Positions 1 through 10,027 of a DNA stretch of 10,027 nt are shown in pieces. The DNA is from a virus (taxonomy: Duplodnaviria > Heunggongvirae > Uroviricota > Caudoviricetes). The notes beneath the pieces were generated by a model. That model saw nothing but the letters and a program-made list of their open reading frames with translations. It had not been told where the DNA came from and made no database searches. The stretch lies in the IMG/VR virus record IMGVR_UViG_2541047945_000003; one strand, 5' to 3'. Position numbers and translations under genes: made by a program. Position 1 is the first letter of the stretch. Each line of letters begins with the position of its first letter.

Positions 1-573
1 CAGAATATGGCGGCGATGCTGACCGGCAGTGAGCAGAACTGGCGCAGCTTCACCCGTTCCGTGCTGTCCATGATGACAGAAATTCTGCTTAAGCAGGCAA
101 TGGTGGGGATTGTCGGGAGTATCGGCAGCGCCATTGGCGGGGCTGTTGGTGGCGGCGCATCCGCGTCAGGCGGTACAGCCATTCAGGCCGCTGCGGCGAA
201 ATTCCATTTTGCAACCGGAGGATTTACGGGAACCGGCGGCAAATATGAGCCAGCGGGGATTGTTCACCGTGGTGAATTTGTCTTCACAAAGGAGGCAACC
301 AGCCGGATTGGCGTGGGGAATCTTTACCGGCTGATGCGCGGCTATGCCACCGGCGGTTATGTCGGTACACCGGGCAGCATGGCAGACAGCCGGTCGCAGG
401 CGTCCGGGACGTTTGAGCAGAATAACCATGTGGTGATTAACAACGACGGCACGAACGGGCAGATAGGTCCGGCTGCTCTGAAGGCAGTGTATGACATGGC
501 CCGCAAGGGTGCCCGTGATGAAATCCAGGCACAGATGCGCGATGGTGGTCTGTTCTCCGGAGGTGGACGATGA
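1..573 (+). CDS. H: Tail tape measure protein H, C-terminal fragment (5' end lies outside the window)
   Basis: Frame-1 ORF is open from base 1 and stops at TGA 571-573. Gly/Ala-rich translation ending ...RDGGLFSGGGR matches the lambda gpH C-terminus as I recall it. Its stop overlaps the M start (ATGA), the standard lambda H-M junction. Confidence 0.88.
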   Translation, partial: QNMAAMLTGSEQNWRSFTRSVLSMMTEILLKQAMVGIVGSIGSAIGGAVGGGASASGGTAIQAAAAKFHFATGGFTGTGGKYEPAGIVHRGEFVFTKEATSRIGVGNLYRLMRGYATGGYVGTPGSMADSRSQASGTFEQNNHVVINNDGTNGQIGPAALKAVYDMARKGARDEIQAQMRDGGLFSGGGR

Positions 574-899
574 AAACCTTCCGCTGGAAAGTGAAACCCG
601 GGATGGATGTGACATCGGCTCCTTCCGTCAGGGAGGTGCGCTTTGGTGATGGCTATTCCCAGCGTGCGCCTGCCGGGCTGAACGCTGACCTGAAAACGTA
701 CAGCGTGACGCTGTCTGTCTCCCGTGAGGAGGCCACGGCGCTGGAGTCGTTTCTGGCTGAGCACGGGGGCTGGAAGGCCTTTCTGTGGACGCCGCCTTAT
801 GGCTACAGGCAGATAAAGGTGACCTGCGCAAAATGGTCGTCGCAGGTCAGTATGTTGCGTGTTGAGTTCAGCGCAGAGTTTAAACAGGTGGTGAACTGA
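570..899 (+). CDS. M: Minor tail protein M
   Basis: 109-aa ORF (MKTFRWKVKPGMDV...) with the length and sequence of lambda gpM from memory. ATG overlaps the H stop and its own stop overlaps the L start (TGATG at 897-901). Confidence 0.9.
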   Translation: MKTFRWKVKPGMDVTSAPSVREVRFGDGYSQRAPAGLNADLKTYSVTLSVSREEATALESFLAEHGGWKAFLWTPPYGYRQIKVTCAKWSSQVSMLRVEFSAEFKQVVN

Positions 900-1597
900 T
901 GCAGGATATCCGGCAGGAAACACTGAATGAATGCACCCGTGCGGAGCAGTCGGCCAGCGTGGTGCTCTGGGAAATCGATCTGACAGAGGTCGGTGGAGAA
1001 CGTTATTTTTTCTGTAATGAGCAGAACGAAAAAGGTGAGCCGGTCACCTGGCAGGGGCGACAGTATCAGCCGTATCCCATTCAGGGGAGTGGTTTTGAAC
1101 TGAATGGCAAAGGCACCAGTACGCGCCCCACGCTGACGGTTTCTAACCTGTACGGTATGGTCACCGGGATGGCGGAAGATATGCAGAGTCTGGTCGGCGG
1201 AACGGTGGTCCGGCGTAAGGTTTACGCCCGTTTTCTGGATGCGGTGAACTTCGTCAACGGAAACAGTGACGCCGATCCGGAGCAGGAGGTGATCAGCCGC
1301 TGGCGCATCGAGCAGTGCAGCGAACTGAGCGCGGTCAGTGCCTCTTTTGTACTGTCCACGCCGACGGAAACGGACGGCGCTGTTTTTCCGGGACGTATCA
1401 TGCTGGCCAACACCTGCACCTGGACCTATCGCGGCGATGAGTGCGGTTATCACGGTCCGGCAGTCGCGGATGAATATGATCAGCCGACGTCCGATATCAC
1501 GAAGGATAAATGCAGCAAATGCCTGAGCGGTTGTAAGTTCCGCAATAACGTCGGCAACTTTGGCGGCTTCCTTTCCATTAACAAACTTTCGCAGTAA
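899..1597 (+). CDS. L: Minor tail protein L
   Basis: 232-aa ORF (MQDIRQETLNECTRAEQSASVVLWEIDL...) matching lambda gpL in length and sequence from memory. The C-terminal Cys cluster (CSKCLSGC) is consistent with the known metal-binding tail of gpL. Start is coupled to the M stop. Confidence 0.9.
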   Translation: MQDIRQETLNECTRAEQSASVVLWEIDLTEVGGERYFFCNEQNEKGEPVTWQGRQYQPYPIQGSGFELNGKGTSTRPTLTVSNLYGMVTGMAEDMQSLVGGTVVRRKVYARFLDAVNFVNGNSDADPEQEVISRWRIEQCSELSAVSASFVLSTPTETDGAVFPGRIMLANTCTWTYRGDECGYHGPAVADEYDQPTSDITKDKCSKCLSGCKFRNNVGNFGGFLSINKLSQ

Positions 1598-1602
1598 ATA
1601 CC

Positions 1603-2346
1603 ATGACACAGACAGAATCAGCGATTCTGGCGCACGCCCGGCGATGTGCGCCAGCGGAGTCGTGCGGCTTCGTGGTAAGCACGCCGGAGGGGGAAAGATA
1701 TTTCCCCTGCGTGAATATCTCCGGTGAGCCGGAGGCGTATTTCCGTATGTCGCCGGAAGACTGGCTGCAGGCAGAAATGCAGGGTGAGATTATGGCGCTG
1801 GTCCACAGCCACCCCGGAGGTCTGCCCTGGCTGAGTGAGGCCGACCGGCGGCTGCAGGTGCAGAGTGATTTGCCGTGGTGGCTGGTCTGCCGGGGGACGA
1901 TTCATAAGTTCCGCTGTGTGCCGCATCTCACCGGGCGGCGCTTTGAGCACGGGGTGACGGACTGTTACACGCTGTTCCGGGATGCTTATCATCTGGCGGG
2001 GATTGAGATGCCGGATTTTCATCGCGGGGATGACTGGTGGCGTCACGGTCAGAATCTCTATCTGGATAATCTGGAGGCCACAGGGCTGTATCAGGTGCCG
2101 TTGTCATCAGCACAACCGGGCGATGTGCTGCTGTGCTGTTTTGGTTCATCGGTGCCGAATCATGCCGCCATTTACTGTGGTGACAGCGAGCTGCTGCACC
2201 ATATTCCTGAACAACTGAGCAAACGAGAGAGGTACACCGACAAATGGCAGCGACGCACACACTCCCTCTGGCGTCACCGGGAATGGCACGCATCTGCCTT
2301 TACGGGGATTTGCAACGATTTGGCCGCCGCATCGACCTTCGTGTGA
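1603..2346 (+). CDS. K: Tail tip assembly protein K (MPN/JAMM plus NlpC/P60 two-domain protein)
   Basis: 247-aa ORF 6 nt after the L stop. The translation has a JAMM-type motif HSHPGGLPWLSEAD (H-x-H-x7-S-x2-D) and downstream Cys/His residues (DCYTL ... LLHH) consistent with an NlpC/P60 fold. The classical lambda annotation starts K at an internal Met (here ATG 1747, MSPEDW...); I prefer 1603 because a complete MPN domain needs the upstream residues. Confidence 0.85.
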   Translation: MTQTESAILAHARRCAPAESCGFVVSTPEGERYFPCVNISGEPEAYFRMSPEDWLQAEMQGEIMALVHSHPGGLPWLSEADRRLQVQSDLPWWLVCRGTIHKFRCVPHLTGRRFEHGVTDCYTLFRDAYHLAGIEMPDFHRGDDWWRHGQNLYLDNLEATGLYQVPLSSAQPGDVLLCCFGSSVPNHAAIYCGDSELLHHIPEQLSKRERYTDKWQRRTHSLWRHREWHASAFTGICNDLAAASTFV

Positions 2347-2915
2347 AAACGGGGGCTGAAGCCATCCGCGCACTTGCCACACAGCTCCCGGCGTTTCGTC
2401 AGAAACTGAGCGACGGCTGGTATCAGGTACGGATTGCCGGGCGGGACGTCAGCACGTCCGGGTTAACGGCGCAGTTACATGAGACTCTGCCTGACGGCGC
2501 TGTGATTCATATTGTTCCCAGAGTCGCCGGGGCCAAGTCAGGGGGCGTATTCCAGATTGTTCTGGGGGCTGCCGCCATTGCCGGATCATTCTTTACTGCC
2601 GGAGCCACCCTTGCAGCATGGGGGGCAGCCATTGGGGCCGGTGGTATGACCGGTATCCTGTTTTCTCTCGGTGCCAGTATGGTGCTCGGTGGTGTGGCGC
2701 AGATGTTGGCACCGAAAGCCAGGACGCCCACGGCAGCAAGTACAGATAACGGCAAACAGAACACCTATTTCTCCTCACTGGATAACATGGTTGCCCAGGG
2801 CAATGTTCTGCCCGTTCTGTACGGTGAAATGCGCGTGGGGTCGCGGGTGGTCTCTCAGGAGATCAGCACGGCAGACGAAGGGGATGGTGGTCAGGTTGTG
2901 GTGATTGGTCGCTGA
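2244..2915 (+). CDS. I: Tail assembly protein I
   Basis: 223-aa ORF (MAATHTLPLASPGMARICLYGDLQRFGRRIDLRVKTGAEAIRAL...) matching lambda gpI from memory, with a Gly/Ala-rich hydrophobic central segment. It overlaps the 3' end of K by about 100 nt in another frame, as in lambda. Confidence 0.9.
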   Translation: MAATHTLPLASPGMARICLYGDLQRFGRRIDLRVKTGAEAIRALATQLPAFRQKLSDGWYQVRIAGRDVSTSGLTAQLHETLPDGAVIHIVPRVAGAKSGGVFQIVLGAAAIAGSFFTAGATLAAWGAAIGAGGMTGILFSLGASMVLGGVAQMLAPKARTPTAASTDNGKQNTYFSSLDNMVAQGNVLPVLYGEMRVGSRVVSQEISTADEGDGGQVVVIGR

Positions 2916-2932
2916 TGAAAAACGTTTATGTG

Positions 2933-2953
2933 AAACCGCCTCCGGGCGGTTTT
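2933..2953 (+). terminator. Short GC hairpin with a weak T-tract in the I-J intergenic region (possible attenuator or RNA structure)
   Basis: AACCGCC-TCCG-GGCGGTT inverted repeat (7-bp stem, 4-nt loop) followed by TTGTCGTTT. The U-tract is interrupted, so this is weak as an intrinsic terminator. Confidence 0.3.
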
Positions 2954-2974
2954 GTCGTTTATGGAGCGTGAGGA

Positions 2975-5900
2975 ATGGGTAAAGGCAGCAGTAAGGGGCA
3001 TACTCCGCGCGAAGCGAAGGACAACCTGAAGTCCACGCAGTTGCTGAGTGTGATCGATGCCATCAGCGAAGGGCCGGTTGAAGGTCCGGTGGATGGATTA
3101 AAAAGCGTGCTGCTGAACAGTACGCCAGTGCTGGACAGTGAGGGGAATACCAACATCTCCGGCGTCACGGTGGTGTTCCGGGCCGGTGAGCAGGAGCAGA
3201 CACCGCCGGAGGGATTTGAATCCTCCGGCTCCGAGACGGTGCTGGGTACGGAAGTGAAATACGACACGCCGATCACCCGGACCATCACGTCGGCAAACAT
3301 TGACCGACTGCGTTTTACCTTCGGCGTGCAGGCACTGGTGGAAACCACCTCAAAGGGGGACAGGAATCCGTCGGAAGTCCGCCTGCTGGTTCAGATACAG
3401 CGTAATGGTGGCTGGGTGACGGAAAAAGACATCACCATTAAGGGCAAAACCACCTCGCAGTATCTGGCCTCGGTGGTGGTGGGTAACCTGCCGCCGCGCC
3501 CGTTCAGTATCCGGATGCGCAGGATGACGCCGGACAGCACCACAGACCAGCTGCAGAACAAAACGCTCTGGTCGTCATACACCGAAATCATCGATGTGAA
3601 ACAGTGCTACCCGAACACGGCACTGGTCGGCGTGCAGGTGGACTCGGAGCAGTTCGGCAGCCAGCAGGTGAGCCGTAATTATCATCTGCGCGGGCGCATT
3701 CTGCAGGTGCCGTCGAACTATAACCCGCAGACGCGGCAATACAGCGGTATCTGGGACGGAACGTTTAAGCCAGCATACAGCAACAACATGGCCTGGTGTC
3801 TGTGGGATATGCTGACCCATCCGCGCTACGGCATGGGGAAACGTCTTGGTGCGGCGGATGTGGACAAATGGGCGCTGTATGTCATCGGCCAGCATTGCGA
3901 TCAGTCGGTGCCGGACGGTTTTGGCGGCACGGAGCCGCGCATCACCTGTAATGCGTACCTGACCACACAGCGCAAGACGTGGGATGTGCTCAGTGATTTC
4001 TGCTCGGCGATGCGCTGTATGCCGGTATGGAACGGGCAGACGCTGACGTTCGTGCAGGACCGACCGTCGGATAAGGTGTGGACCTATAACCGCAGTAATG
4101 TGGTGATGCCGGATGATGGTGCGCCGTTCCGCTACAGCTTCAGCGCCCTGAAGGACCGCCATAATGCCGTTGAGGTGAACTGGATTGACCCGAATAACGG
4201 CTGGGAGACGGCGACAGAGCTTGTGGAGGACACGCAGGCCATTGCCCGTTACGGTCGTAGCGTCACGAAGATGGATGCTTTTGGCTGTACCAGCCGGGGG
4301 CAGGCACATCGCGCCGGGCTGTGGCTGATTAAAACAGAACTGCTGGAAACGCAGACCGTGGACTTCAGCGTGGGTGCCGAAGGGCTTCGCCATGTACCGG
4401 GCGATGTCATTGAAATCTGCGATGATGACTATGCCGGTATCAGCACCGGCGGGCGCGTGCTGGCGGTAAACAGCCAGACCCGGACGCTGACGCTCGACCG
4501 TGAAATCACGCTGCCATCTTCCGGCACCACGCTGATAAGCCTGGTTGACGGGCAGGGGAGTCCGGTCAGCGTGGAGGTTCAGTCCGTCACCGACGGCGTG
4601 AAGGTAAAAGTGAGCCGTGTTCCTGACGGCGTTGCCGAGTACAGCGTGTGGGGGCTGAAGCTGCCGACGCTGCGCCAGCGCCTGTTCCGCTGTGTGAGTA
4701 TCCGTGAGAACGATGACGGTACGTATGCCATCACTGCCGTGCAGCATGTACCGGAGAAAGAAGCCATCGTGGATAACGGGGCGCACTTTGACGGTGACCA
4801 GAGCGGCACGGTGAATGGTGTCACGCCGCCAGCAGTGCAGCATCTGACCGCAGAAGTCACTGCAGACAGCGGGGAATACCAGGTGCTGGCGCGCTGGGAT
4901 ACGCCGAAGGTGGTGAAGGGGGTGAGCTTTATGCTTCGCCTGACCGTGGCAGCGGATGACGGCAGTGAGCGGCTGGTCAGCACGGCCCGGACGACGGAAA
5001 CCACATACCGCTTCACGCAACTGGCGCTGGGAAACTACAGGCTGACAGTCCGGGCGGCAAATGCCTGGGGGCAGCAGGGCGATCCGGCGTCGGTATCGTT
5101 CCGGATTGCCGCACCGGCAGCGCCATCTCGGATTGAGCTGACGCCGGGCTATTTTCAGATAACCGCCACGCCGCATCTTGCCGTTTATGATCCGACGGTA
5201 CAGTTTGAGTTCTGGTTCTCGGAAAAGCGGATTACCGATATCAGGCAGGTTGAAACCACAGCCCGCTATCTTGGCACGGCGCTGTACTGGATAGCTGCCA
5301 GTATCAATATTAAGCCGGGCCATGATTATTATTTTTACGTTCGCAGTGTGAACACCGTTGGCAAATCGGCATTCGTGGAGGCCGTCGGTCGGGCGAGCGA
5401 TGATGCGGAAGGTTACCTGGATTTTTTCAAAGGCCAGATAACCGAATCCCATCTCGGCAAGGAGCTGCTGGAAAAAGTCGAGCTGACGGAGGATAACGCC
5501 AGCAAACTGGAGGAGTTTTCGAAAGAGTGGAAGGACGCCAACGATAAATGGAATGCCATGTGGGGCGTCAAAATTGAGCAGACCAAAGACGGCAAACATT
5601 ATGTCGCGGGGCTTGGCCTCAGCATGGAGGATACGGAGGAAGGCAAACTGAGCCAGTTCCTGGTTGCCGCTAACCGTATCGCGTTTATTGACCCGGCAAA
5701 CGGGAATGAAACGCCGATGTTTGTGGCGCAGGGCAACCAGATATTCATGAACGAAGTGTTCCTGAAGTATCTGACGGCTCCCACCATTACCAGTGGCGGT
5801 AATCCTCCGGCATTTTCCCTGACACCGGACGGGCGGCTGACGGCGAGAAATGCTGATATCAGCGGTAACGTGAATGCGAACTCCGGGACGCTCAATAATG

Positions 5901-6388
5901 TCACGGTAAATGAAAACTGTACGATTAAGGGCATGCTGGAGGCGAACCAGGTCAGAGGTGACTTCGTTAAAACTGTATCCAAATCATTCCCGAAAAAGGC
6001 TGGTACGTGGGGTAACACGGAAACACCAAACGGGACGGTTACAGTCACCATTTACGATGATCATAACTTTGACCGCCAAATCATTATTCCGCCCATTATT
6101 TTTAACGGTGTGGCGTATGACGATCCGGGGAGCGGTAATAACCCGGGAGGTACGCGATACACGGGTTATGGTTTTGAAGTTCGCAAAAATGGCGTATTAA
6201 TCGCATCCAGAGAAACTAAAGGAGCCATTCCCGGTAGTTACAGTGCGGTTATTGATATGCCGAGTGGTGGTGGTAACGTCACTCTGGAGTTTAAGATTTT
6301 CCAGAAAGGCAATCAGGGCGCAGGTAACATCACAGACTGTACGGTGATTGTGACCAAAAAAGCTGCTTCCGGTATCAGTATCCGTTGA
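2975..6388 (+). CDS. J: Central tail fiber / host specificity protein J, with a divergent C-terminal receptor-binding region
   Basis: 1137-aa ORF preceded by AGGA 1 nt upstream of the ATG. The first ~975 residues ([34 protein letters not shown]...) match lambda gpJ closely from memory. The last ~160 residues (from about [14 protein letters not shown]... to ...[10 protein letters not shown]) do not match my recollection of the lambda J C-terminus. Confidence 0.93.
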
Positions 6389-6408
6389 AATATTTATAAC
6401 CCCAATAC

Positions 6409-6436
6409 GGGCGCCAGCAATGGCGCCTTTTTTATT
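6409..6436 (+). terminator. Rho-independent terminator-like hairpin between J and stf
   Basis: GGCGCC (6410-6415), loop AGCAAT, GGCGCC (6422-6427), followed directly by TTTTTTATTT. It lies 21 nt after the J stop. Confidence 0.6.
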
Positions 6437-6448
6437 TGTGGAGTGAGT

Positions 6449-8803
6449 ATGGCAGTACAGATTTCAGGTGTGCTGAAAGATGGTGCGGGAAAACCAATAC
6501 AGAACTGCACTATTCAACTGAAGGCAAAGCGTAACAGCACCACGGTACTGGTGAACACGGTGGCCTCTGAAAATCCGGATGAAGCCGGGCGTTACAGCAT
6601 GGATGTTGAGTATGGCCAGTACAACGTCACCCTGCTGGTTGAAGGTTTTCCGCCTTCACATGCCGGGACCATCACCGTGTATGAAGATTCTAAGCCGGGG
6701 ACGCTGAATGATTTTCTCGGTGCCATGACGGAAGAGGATGTCATGCCGGAGGCATTACGCCGTTTTGAGGCTATGGTGGAAGAAGCAGCACGTAACGCTG
6801 AAGCTGCCTCTCAGAGCGCAGCGGCGGCAAAGAAATCCGAAACTGCAGCGGCATCATCGAAGAACGCGGCGAAAACCTCAGAAACGAATGCAGCTAACAG
6901 CGCACAGGCGGCAGCGGCCTCGCAGACTGCATCGGCAAATTCCGCGACAGCAGCTAAAAAATCAGAAACCAACGCGAAAAACAGCGAGACAGCAGCAAAG
7001 ACGAGCGAAACCAACGCAAAGTCCAGCCAGACGGCAGCGAAAACCAGCGAAACGAATGCTAAAGCCAGTGAAACTGCGGCAAAAAACAGCCAGGCTGCAG
7101 CAGCTGAAAGCGAGAGCGCAGCAGCCGGTTCTGCGACTTCAGCAGCTGGATCAGCAACTGCTGCGGCTAACAGCCAGAAAGCTGCGAAGACGAGTGAAAC
7201 TAACGCAAAGTCCAGCCAGACGGCAGCGAAGACCAGCGAAACGAATGCCAAAGCCAGCGAAACTGCGGCAAAAAACAGTCAGGATGCAGCGGCCCAAAGC
7301 GAGAGTGCCGCAGCTGGTTCTGCAAGTGCGGCAGCTAATAGCCAAAAAGCTGCAAAAACCAGTGAAACTAACGCAAAGACGAGTGAAACAAAAGCAGCAG
7401 CCAGCGAGATAGAAGCAACGTCAGCCGCAACAAGAGCAGAGAATGCAGCCCGGATTGCAGAAGATGCCGCTGATCCTGCTTCAGTCCCTCCGCTTCCTGA
7501 TATCTGGCTACCCTTGAATGATTCTCTGGAAGCGATAACAGGGTATGCCCCGGGCTATAAAACAATAACCATCGGCAGTGATGAAATAACAATGCCTGTT
7601 AATGGCATATGCCAATTTAGCCGCGCTTCATCAGCAACGTATATTGATAAGTCCGGGCATATTACCGTGGCAGGGAATAACGTTCCTCGTTTTGAAAAAT
7701 ATGGTTTGCTGATAGAGAATCAGCGAACAAACATGTTCGTAAATAGTTTTAATCCTGATGCGTGGAATAAAAGCGGTGGTATATCTGTAACATCATCAAC
7801 AGATGAATTTGAGTTTAAATATGGACGTTTCACAGTAGGAAGTGAGATAGCAGGAACGACAACAGGGAGAAATATATGCACAGTTGCTGGTAATAAAGGC
7901 ATAGATGTGACTGGCGATGATCAGTACAGTAAAGGTCCGTATGTTACCGCGTCGTTCAGGGTAAGAAGTGATCTCAATGTTCGCGCACGTATCCGTTTTG
8001 AACGGTATAACTCGGAAGGATACACTTTCCTTTGTGACGCCTATTTGTCATTACAGACTCATGAACTACAAATTACGGGTGGTAATGCCCAGCTATTAAC
8101 AGCAAACTTTGAAATCGACCCTGGTAGTGGATGGATATATTTTCAGGCAACACTGAAATGTCTGCCAGAATGGGGAATGGTTGGTACGCAGCTGCAAATT
8201 GCAGCCGACAGAGCAGTGGGGGCTTTTGCAACAGGTGACTGGATAGAAGTAACCACCCCGCAATTCGAGTATGGTGCTTGTGCAACTTCCTTTATCATAA
8301 CGACAACAGAGCCAGCGACTCGTGCATCAGATTTATGTAAATTTCCGCTGATGAAAAATATGTATACCATGCCTTTTACGTTCATGGTGGAAGTCCATAA
8401 AAACTGGTTTATTTCTCATAATGCTGCACCGCGTGTCATTGATTCAGAAAATCACCAGTCCGGAGGCCCATTTATTATGGGGTTTGGTTCTTCTGGAACT
8501 ATCAGTCAGGATGGTTATTCGTATTGCGATATAGGCGGGGCTAACCGGCGTGTATATGAGTCATGCGGAGTAAGAGATCTCGTTATGGGATTCAGGGTTA
8601 AGGCTGACGGCATGACATGCTCATTTGCAAATAAGAATATAAGCACTGAAACCAAAACAGTATGGAAATATATTCGTGAAGCAGCCGTGATTCGTATCGG
8701 GGGGCAAACGACGACAGGATTACGACACCTTAATGGTCATATAAAAAACCTCCGTTTCTGGAACAGAGCATTGTCAGATACGCAGCTTAAGGAATACGTA
8801 TAA
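6449..8803 (+). CDS. stf: Side tail fiber protein (Stf-like): lambda-type N-terminal domain, repeat shaft, divergent C-terminal putative receptor-binding domain
   Basis: ATG 6449 with GGAG 5 nt upstream (the ORF track begins at an in-frame GTG at 6443). The N-terminus MAVQISGVLKDGAGKPIQNCTIQLKAKRNSTTVLVNTVASENPDEAGRYSMDVEYGQY... resembles the lambda Stf N-terminal domain from memory. The middle is an Ala/Lys/Ser/Glu/Thr-rich repeat region (KTSETNAK units). The C-terminal ~430 aa is lower-GC and ends ...IKNLRFWNRALSDTQLKEYV, which resembles the terminal strand of LamG/concanavalin-A-like jelly-roll domains. Confidence 0.85.
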   Translation: MAVQISGVLKDGAGKPIQNCTIQLKAKRNSTTVLVNTVASENPDEAGRYSMDVEYGQYNVTLLVEGFPPSHAGTITVYEDSKPGTLNDFLGAMTEEDVMPEALRRFEAMVEEAARNAEAASQSAAAAKKSETAAASSKNAAKTSETNAANSAQAAAASQTASANSATAAKKSETNAKNSETAAKTSETNAKSSQTAAKTSETNAKASETAAKNSQAAAAESESAAAGSATSAAGSATAAANSQKAAKTSETNAKSSQTAAKTSETNAKASETAAKNSQDAAAQSESAAAGSASAAANSQKAAKTSETNAKTSETKAAASEIEATSAATRAENAARIAEDAADPASVPPLPDIWLPLNDSLEAITGYAPGYKTITIGSDEITMPVNGICQFSRASSATYIDKSGHITVAGNNVPRFEKYGLLIENQRTNMFVNSFNPDAWNKSGGISVTSSTDEFEFKYGRFTVGSEIAGTTTGRNICTVAGNKGIDVTGDDQYSKGPYVTASFRVRSDLNVRARIRFERYNSEGYTFLCDAYLSLQTHELQITGGNAQLLTANFEIDPGSGWIYFQATLKCLPEWGMVGTQLQIAADRAVGAFATGDWIEVTTPQFEYGACATSFIITTTEPATRASDLCKFPLMKNMYTMPFTFMVEVHKNWFISHNAAPRVIDSENHQSGGPFIMGFGSSGTISQDGYSYCDIGGANRRVYESCGVRDLVMGFRVKADGMTCSFANKNISTETKTVWKYIREAAVIRIGGQTTTGLRHLNGHIKNLRFWNRALSDTQLKEYV
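6998..7354 (+). repeat. In-frame tandem duplication (~189-bp unit, two near-identical copies) inside the stf shaft, within a longer degenerate ~27-nt periodic region (~6820-7400)
   Basis: Copy A 6998-7186 and copy B 7187-7354 align almost base for base (aagacgag[c/t]gaaac[c/t]aacgcaaagtccagccagacggcagcgaa...ggttctgc). Copy B lacks about 21 nt near its 3' end. Protein level: KTSETNAKSSQTAAKTSETNAKASETAAKNSQ[A/D]AAA[E/Q]SESAAAGSA... occurs twice. Confidence 0.8.
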
Positions 8804-9072
8804 TGCGGGATATAACATTACGATTCGATAACAGAGAACAGTTTAACGCAATTGTATATGACAGTGGCCTGTTCAGTCTTGAAGAAGAAAATGGGGTTCT
8901 TGTTGATGTTATTGGCTGCATTATTGATTACGAGGAGCCAGAAAACGAAAGATGTACAGGCATTGATCGCGGTGGTTTTTTCGTAAACATGAGGATTGTT
9001 GATGGCAGTAAAAACATATCTTCTTTAATGCCTTTCATTACGACAGATCAGCATGTAAGGACATGGGCTTAA
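8803..9072 (+). CDS. Hypothetical protein (89 aa), start overlapping the stf stop; possible non-canonical fiber-associated factor or moron
   Basis: ATG 8803-8805 overlaps the stf TAA (TAATG), with AAGGA 9 nt upstream. AT-rich, acidic translation (MRDITLRFDNREQFNAIVYDSGLFSLEEENGVLVDVIGCIIDYEEPENER...). I recognise no family, and it does not resemble the canonical lambda Tfa as I recall it. Confidence 0.5.
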   Translation: MRDITLRFDNREQFNAIVYDSGLFSLEEENGVLVDVIGCIIDYEEPENERCTGIDRGGFFVNMRIVDGSKNISSLMPFITTDQHVRTWA

Positions 9073-9084
9073 TGGAGTAAGACA

Positions 9085-9810
9085 ATGGTTACAAAAACAG
9101 TAATTCCTGATGACATCAAAACGCTAAAATCCGATGTTAGTAAACTAAAAACTGATCAAGGAAGCTATGCAACAAAATCATATGTAGACAATAAAACAAC
9201 ATGGAATAGTTATTGCAATGTAATCTATGATCAAAAGGCATTGCCGACCACTGGAACTATATTTAGCGGTAAGATTCACTTGTCAAATAAGACTGGTGAA
9301 ACGGAAAACGCTTATAGTGATATATATACCAGAAAAAATATTGATGGTACTAAAGATACAATGACGAGGATCGTCACACATAACGGGACAAAAGGTATCT
9401 TTTGGGACTTTAGTGATCTTTACGGAGGAACTTTAATTTTCCCTGGCACTGCTGGTTATTTGAAAATGGGTAAATGCCTCATGTCCTATGGGGATCGTGT
9501 AGATAATGCCCTGATTAAATTTGATTATACAGACACACTACAGATCAAATATGCTAATCATGGTTCGACCATGACACTAAACACACAGGGAACCGCTCAC
9601 GCTGGCGTTACTGCTAAATTGTGGGGCAATTCTAGCCGTCCGGTTGTTTATGAAGTTGGTGTAGATGGTGGGGCTTTTATATTCTTCGGTCAAAAACAAA
9701 CAGATGACACATATGCATTTGCTGTTAATGGTGCATGTCAAGCGACCGCATTTAACCAGATAGACTGGCCCCCTGAATCACCAGACAACCAATATCACTT
9801 ATTTAAGTGA
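9085..9810 (+). CDS. Hypothetical protein (241 aa as read), 3' end fused to or truncated by IS2; native sequence ends at about codon 225
   Basis: ATG 9085 with GGAG 7 nt upstream. AT-rich ORF with an N-terminus ([31 protein letters not shown]) reminiscent of fibre-type proteins, then a Gly/Thr/Tyr-rich region. From nt 9761 the frame continues through the IS2 terminal repeat ([16 protein letters not shown]) to TGA 9808-9810, so the C-terminus is IS-derived. Confidence 0.55.
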
Positions 9811-9811
9811 T
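9794..9811. promoter_or_regulatory. Perfect palindrome in the IS2 terminal region upstream of insC (candidate OrfA operator / promoter element)
   Basis: ATCACTTA-TT-TAAGTGAT is a perfect 8-bp inverted repeat with a 2-bp spacer, about 40 nt upstream of the insC ATG. The IS2 orfA-proximal end is known to carry the orfA promoter and repressor binding; the exact site assignment is my inference. Confidence 0.35.
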
Positions 9812-9851
9812 AGTCTTAATACTAGTTTTTAGGCTAGTCATTGGAGAGCAG

Positions 9852-10027
9852 ATGATTGATGTCTTAGGACCGGAGAAACGCAGACGGCGTACCACACAGG
9901 AAAAGATCGCAATTGTTCAGCAGAGCTTTGAACCAGGGATGACGGTCTCCCTCGTTGCCCGGCAACATGGTGTAGCAGCCAGCCAGTTATTTCTCTGGCG
10001 TAAGCAATACCAGGAAGGAAGTCTTAC
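9852..10027 (+). CDS. insC: IS2 transposase OrfA (InsC), N-terminal 58 codons; 3' end outside the window
   Basis: Translation [58 protein letters not shown] matches IS2 InsC from memory, including a helix-turn-helix-like segment. No stop codon before the window ends. Confidence 0.9.

Follow-up and report, generated by a model that had tools for sequence, protein, structure and literature searches.

Background

Lambda geneticists have worked for decades with the h434 host-range allele of gene J. Phage 434, and the hybrid lambda h434 with its tail fibre gene from 434, are reported to bind OmpC as receptor in place of LamB (PMC3509688 and PMC11101478, citing primary work). The LamB-binding J protein of lambda (gpJ; PDB 8iyk, 8xcj and 8xck) is built of hub domains, two FNIII domains, a helical shaft, a beta-prism fibre and a trimeric Ig-like receptor-binding domain (RBD), which inserts four distal loops into the porin; on binding, the base of the RBD spreads, the fibre twists and the tail opens (PMC11101478).

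Other tips on lambda-like J proteins have been described. A8 (PDB 9wca/9wcb) and 1A2 are engineered, OmpC-targeting lambda gpJ chimeras (Brodel et al., Nature 2024, PMC11338833), in which the C-termini of natural prophage J proteins were joined to the lambda body at lambda residue 964. Phage phi330, a siphophage of EHEC, has a lambda-like J with an OmpC-dependent tip, the role of OmpC having been established for its tail fibre by knockout and complementation (PMC12502783).

Here we analysed the J gene in a stretch of 10,027 nucleotides from a tailed phage (IMG/VR record IMGVR_UViG_2541047945_000003), hereafter called the window, and compared its C-terminal region with those of these phages.

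Organisation of the tail module

The window holds the genes for the tail tip and for host recognition of a lambda-like E. coli prophage (Table 1). Comparison of the ORFs and their Pfam matches with the phage records found that J is placed after M, L, K and I, and that the gene order is as in lambda and 434. From position 1 to 9760 the window was 99.9% identical to Escherichia phage PhiR11_1, a deposited phage record in which E. coli K-12 MG1655 is given as the host. A chromosomal prophage adjoining ybhB in E. coli LC-1302-2020 matched the entire window at 99.99% identity. Both PhiR11_1 and the LC-1302-2020 prophage have the same whole tail module as the window, and the J gene of PhiR11_1 had 99.7% DNA identity to that of the window.

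The product of J contains the Pfam series Phage-tail_3, FNIII-A_GpJ, Ig_J, Ig_J_second, Phage_Tail_Tip and Ig_GpJ_C (hits to PF13550, PF24801, PF24421, PF24489, PF09327 and PF12421, each above the cutoff). J is the lambdoid tip attachment protein (gpJ), with the full series of domains from the hub to the C-terminal RBD.

Table 1 Features of the window and of the J gene
Feature	Position	Strand	Basis
End of tape measure gene	listed before M		ORF list
M	570-899		Pfam minor tail protein
L	899-1597		Pfam tail protein L
K	1603-2346		Pfam JAB + NlpC/P60
I	2244-2915		Pfam Lambda_tail_I
J, tail-tip attachment/central tail fibre protein	2975-6388	+	Single ORF, stop codon after 1137 aa
Conserved J body, residues 1-975	2975-5899	+	Identity to lambda J and 434 J
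Transition zone/candidate cassette junction, residues about 963-1005	5860-5990	+	End of the similarity to J genes carrying other tips
Predicted receptor-binding domain (Ig-like), 434/h434 type, residues 1001-1136	5975-6382	+	Pfam PF12421 Ig_GpJ_C
Intrinsic-terminator-like hairpin and T run, directly after J	6409-6436	+	Terminator scan
stf, side tail fibre gene	6449-8803	+	Pfam PF08400, E 6e-68
89-aa ORF	8803-9072		phrog_1361, function unassigned
241-aa ORF	9085-9810		Truncated tail fiber domain gene, phrog_4563

A conserved body and a diverged tip

J was 88% identical overall to lambda J (NC_001416, 1132 aa), and this identity was very unevenly distributed along the protein. A preliminary description of the sequence had stated that the first 975 or so residues of J are very close to lambda J and that identity would fall sharply near residue 975. 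A global alignment bore out both points: identity was 96.7% over residues 1-975 and 38.3% over residues 976-1137, the latter hereafter called the tip. In windows of 30 residues, amino acid identity to lambda J was 0.87 from residue 946, 0.77 from 961, 0.53 from 976 and 0.30 from 991, and stayed at 0.23-0.50 beyond. The same fall was found in the DNA, with identities of 0.95, 0.85, 0.74 and 0.48 in the 100-nt bins starting at 5675, 5775, 5875 and 5975, respectively, and by sensitive blastn the homology to lambda ended at position 5944. About 100 mismatches to lambda were seen in the last 162 residues, as against about 5 expected at the 3.3% divergence of the body, and therefore the divergence of the tip is not due to chance.

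The J body was also highly similar to that of 434 (97.1% amino acid identity). By homology to lambda gpJ, and with the domains named after PMC11101478, it would comprise the hub domains, the two FNIII/Ig domains, the helical shaft and most of the beta-prism fibre.

Base composition changed together with identity, as the preliminary description had noticed. The G + C content fell from 58.2% in the J body (2975-5899) to 46.8% in the C-terminal part (5900-6388), with 44% in the AT-rich segment at 6040-6130 given there as an example, and GC3 fell from 0.71 to 0.48. The C-terminal part of lambda's own J keeps a G + C content of 54.6%.

The same description had held the last 160 or so residues to differ entirely from lambda. 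Strong divergence was indeed found, identity to lambda J over the C-terminal 160 residues being 38% and not above 80%, but "entirely" proved too strong: residues 1001-1136 match PF12421 (E 3.9e-25, above the curated cutoff), the family to which the lambda tip also belongs, and in BLASTP and PDB sequence alignments the similarity runs to lambda's last residue with three small indels (of 2, 6 and 6 residues). A PDB sequence search aligned the tip with the lambda gpJ RBD of 8xcj/8iyk and also with A8 gpJ, in both cases along the entire C-terminus. Judged by this homology, the C-terminus is a diverged allele of the same domain as lambda's and not an unrelated sequence. At 38-39% identity to lambda residues about 990-1132, the tip falls outside the lambda (LamB-binding) type. 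An AlphaFold2 single-sequence model of residues 959-1137 had a mean pLDDT of 50.8, too poor for a fold search; the Ig-like fold is predicted from the Pfam and PDB sequence homology only.

The tip is of the phage 434 type

The J proteins of the window and of 434 are both 1137 aa long and align without gaps, with 96.4% identity overall. The tips were 92.0% identical over residues 976-1137 and 93% over residues 986-1137, with 13 substitutions in the last 162 residues and 11 in the last 152, many of them conservative (V/I, N/S, T/A, R/K). The full-length J DNA had 94.3-94.4% identity to 434 and to the laboratory hybrid lambda h434 imm21. On this similarity, the diverged tip is assigned to the classical h434 allele, that is, to the phage-434-type receptor-binding cassette.

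A tblastn search of 50,697 phage records with the last 162 residues gave a bimodal distribution, with 74 records at 90% or more, none at 60-90% and 169 below 60%. The high cluster includes 434 itself (92%), mEp460, cdtI, phage 2851 and many Stx-converting phages. Since the distribution is bimodal and 434 lies in the high cluster, the tip of the window is a member of one discrete tip type.

Within this type the window carries a sub-allele that was also found, at 96.5-100% DNA identity, in PhiR11_1, PhiR63_1, Tritos, HannyBb and ev207. The tips of HannyBb and Tritos, and those of prophages of E. coli LF82, NRG 857C and LC-1302-2020, were 100% identical to that of the window at the DNA level; PhiR63_1 was 100% identical over residues 976-1137 at the protein level (tblastn), and PhiR11_1 had 99.1% DNA identity. 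Between the window and 434, dN/dS was 0.15 in the tip and 0.14 in the fibre just upstream. Diversifying selection between the two tips was therefore rejected, and the value of 0.15 indicates ordinary purifying selection on the tip as a working protein.

Prevalence in E. coli

Of 5426 complete E. coli genomes, 2114 contained the DNA of the 434-type tip (5900-6388), with 2862 occurrences in all. A piece of the J body of the same length (489 nt, 4000-4488) was present in 4526 of these genomes, at 15,069 places. The DNA of lambda's own tip was found in 98 of the 5426, each time at 99% identity or more, and among the matches listed the genomes with the lambda tip were laboratory or DE3 strains. With 2114 genomes against 98, lambda is the unusual one. 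To speak of a "replaced" tip is thus a lambda-centred view, and it is the LamB tip of lambda that is the rare and unusual form. The 434-type cassette, carried by some two fifths of the complete E. coli genomes, is common, ordinary and already described, and nothing in the J of the window departs from known biology. The result is of use for annotation, in which the central fibre is best described as 434-type and as a probable binder of OmpC, not of LamB.

Receptor of the window J

The suggestion in the preliminary description that the receptor is probably not LamB is supported by homology, the tip being 38% identical to lambda and 92-93% identical to the OmpC-using 434. With 92-93% identity to 434 in the RBD, the porin is most likely OmpC, and we consider it highly probable that the J of the window uses OmpC and not LamB. 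The sequenced lambda h434 hybrid also has the lom, stf and tfa of 434, so that the hybrid alone cannot separate J from the side fibre as the determinant of OmpC use. The mapping of OmpC specificity to the C-terminus of J goes back to older genetics. When the side fibre had been replaced by an unrelated one, natural gpJ C-termini grafted at lambda residue 964 were sufficient to direct lambda particles to OmpC (PMC11338833).

By analogy with lambda, residues 1 to about 975 would form the tail-tip hub and the trimeric central fibre, and the last 150 or so residues an Ig-like RBD that would dock with its distal loops on a trimeric porin of the outer membrane. Receptor binding would then set off the same rearrangement of the fibre and opening of the tail as reported for lambda. 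The J of the window appears to be the lambda machinery nearly unchanged, differing in the RBD only.

An alternative is that the substitutions have given this 434-like tip another receptor (OmpF or LamB, for example) or have restricted it to a small group of OmpC alleles. Some room for such a shift is left by the 13 residues that differ from 434 among the last 162, and the sub-allele is a minority within its cluster, with 46 E. coli records at 99% DNA identity or more as against 2056 at 90-95%. Small changes can matter in these proteins: OmpC alleles can be discriminated by gpJ tips, and gpJ 1A2 delivers efficiently with the OmpC of EDL933 but not with that of MG1655 (PMC11338833), while a few point mutations give lambda J the use of OmpF (PMC11101478, PMC13190303). 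However, the tip aligns with that of 434 without indels, its substitutions are in many cases conservative, and the dN/dS of the tip, close to that of the upstream fibre, gives no sign of diversifying selection. Moreover, PhiR11_1, which carries the sub-allele, lists K-12 MG1655 as its host, and K-12 is the classical host of 434 too. A shifted receptor is therefore unlikely, and OmpC remains the preferred reading.

It is rather unlikely that the sub-allele recognises another set of OmpC alleles or a second porin relative to classical 434; if it did, the 434-type tips of E. coli prophages would be a graded series of allele-specific keys and not one specificity. No receptor, infection or binding data were found in the literature searched for the phages or prophages sharing the sub-allele. 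The PhiR phage collection was reportedly described by Brenes and Laub in 2025. The SNIPE paper, in which the PhiR panel was used, reported dependence on ManYZ and not outer-membrane receptors.

The tip as an exchangeable cassette

The relation between body and tip was examined in phages that share one and not the other. The J body of phage 2G7b is 99.2% identical to that of the window, and its tip merely 45%. By megablast the match to 2G7b ends at nucleotide 2945 of J (window position 5919), and by sensitive blastn it reaches 5991. Conversely, J bodies with a DNA divergence of up to 15% also carry the 434-type tip, those of Stx2c phages being an example.

The sharp boundary, the drop in GC and GC3, the 2G7b body with another tip and the lack of intermediates argue together for exchange of the tip by recombination. 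The tip behaves as an exchangeable cassette with its junction near 5920-5990, and swaps among lambdoid phages probably proceed by homologous recombination at about these positions, within the conserved part of the fibre that immediately precedes the tip. Brodel et al. made their engineered swap at the same place, lambda J residue 964 (PMC11338833).

The C-terminus could also have diverged in place, by fast evolution under pressure from the host and without any exchange. Receptor-binding domains do evolve quickly, and the tip is still homologous to that of lambda. This is nevertheless very unlikely, since the boundary is confined to about 30 codons and a fall in GC3 from 0.71 to 0.48 would not result from point substitution under protein selection. 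Divergence in place also disagrees with the absence of phage records at 60-90% similarity, with the nearly identical body of 2G7b bearing so different a tip, and with the occurrence of one tip on bodies as different as those of the Stx phages. That J is a relic in a decaying prophage, its tip without present function, is hardly credible: an IS3 element does interrupt the downstream tail-fibre-domain gene and is followed by IS66 in the LC-1302-2020 prophage, 99.99% identical to the window, but the J frame of 1137 codons is intact, dN/dS is low and a 99.9% identical tail module is carried by the deposited phage PhiR11_1.

The region downstream of J

The terminator scan found a hairpin with an 8-bp stem, including 6 GC pairs, followed by TTTTTT directly after J, and the 434 record has an annotated terminator in the corresponding position. 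In the stem (6409-6428) the two phages differ by a compensatory pair, GGGCGCC...GGCGCC in the window versus GGGCACC...GGTGCC in 434, which is consistent with a conserved functional hairpin. Between J and stf (6389-6448) the window has no lom, and the terminator leads straight into the ribosome-binding site and start codon of stf. Lambda, 434 and 2G7b have a lom of about 600 nt here, and their homology to the window skips it at 6432-6436.

The stf gene encodes a second host-recognition element of the module. Its N-terminal part matches the prophage tail fibre N-terminal family (Table 1), the C-terminal 446 aa match the tail protein phrog_1419, and the counterpart in PhiR11_1 is annotated as side tail fibre. 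An AT skew of 0.5-0.6 was observed at 6750-7500, arising from shaft repeats rich in Ala, Ser, Thr and Lys; the repeats at 6946-7396 have the peptide motif AAKTSETNAK and DNA periods of 21, 42 and 189 nt. In the RefSeq annotation of the identical prophage, stf is divided between a pseudogene and a separate protein named "head spike fiber domain", despite the frame being open throughout. The C-terminal 446 residues of Stf and the 89-aa ORF (together 7463-9072) are unrelated to the side-fibre tip and assembly protein of lambda and 434, and the G + C content falls further there, to 35-45%. The 89-aa ORF was considered as a counterpart of the 434 tail fibre assembly protein, which is also 89 aa long, and was rejected for lack of any similarity.

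The window ends within an IS3-family insertion sequence, the left end of which makes up its last 267 bases (9761-10027). The gene into which it is inserted encodes a "tail fiber domain" protein (phrog_4563) of about 346 aa when intact, as in PhiR11_1, so that the 241-aa ORF is what remains of this gene, truncated and ending in IS-derived sequence. E. coli LC-1302-2020 and MMC-J-0105 have the same insertion, followed there by an IS66 element.

Comparison with other J tips

Lambda J has the same order of domains as the J of the window, with a tip that is 38-39% identical and of different G + C content. Phage 434 shares with the window the terminator after J, and differs from it in having lom between J and stf and in its stf, which is different and shorter (1314 nt, versus 2355 nt in the window).

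Assignment of the tip to the types of the engineered chimeras was rejected in both cases, the identity over residues 986-1137 being 45% to A8 gpJ (PDB 9wca) and 45% to 2G7b for the 1A2/2G7b type. In tblastn against the 1A2 sequence of the supplement, which is damaged by optical character recognition, the tip of the window gave an E value of 1e-12 and that of 2G7b one of 2e-50. On this damaged sequence, the J tip of 2G7b (6400-6870 in that phage) appears to be of the same type as the engineered gpJ 1A2. The OmpC-dependent tip of phi330 was 44.5% identical to that of the window.

Several tip types of unrelated sequence on the same J body use OmpC, namely those of 434, A8, 1A2/2G7b and phi330, and the last three are each about 45% identical to the tip of the window. 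The existence of multiple OmpC-directed tips on one J body is relevant for the retargeting of lambda particles.
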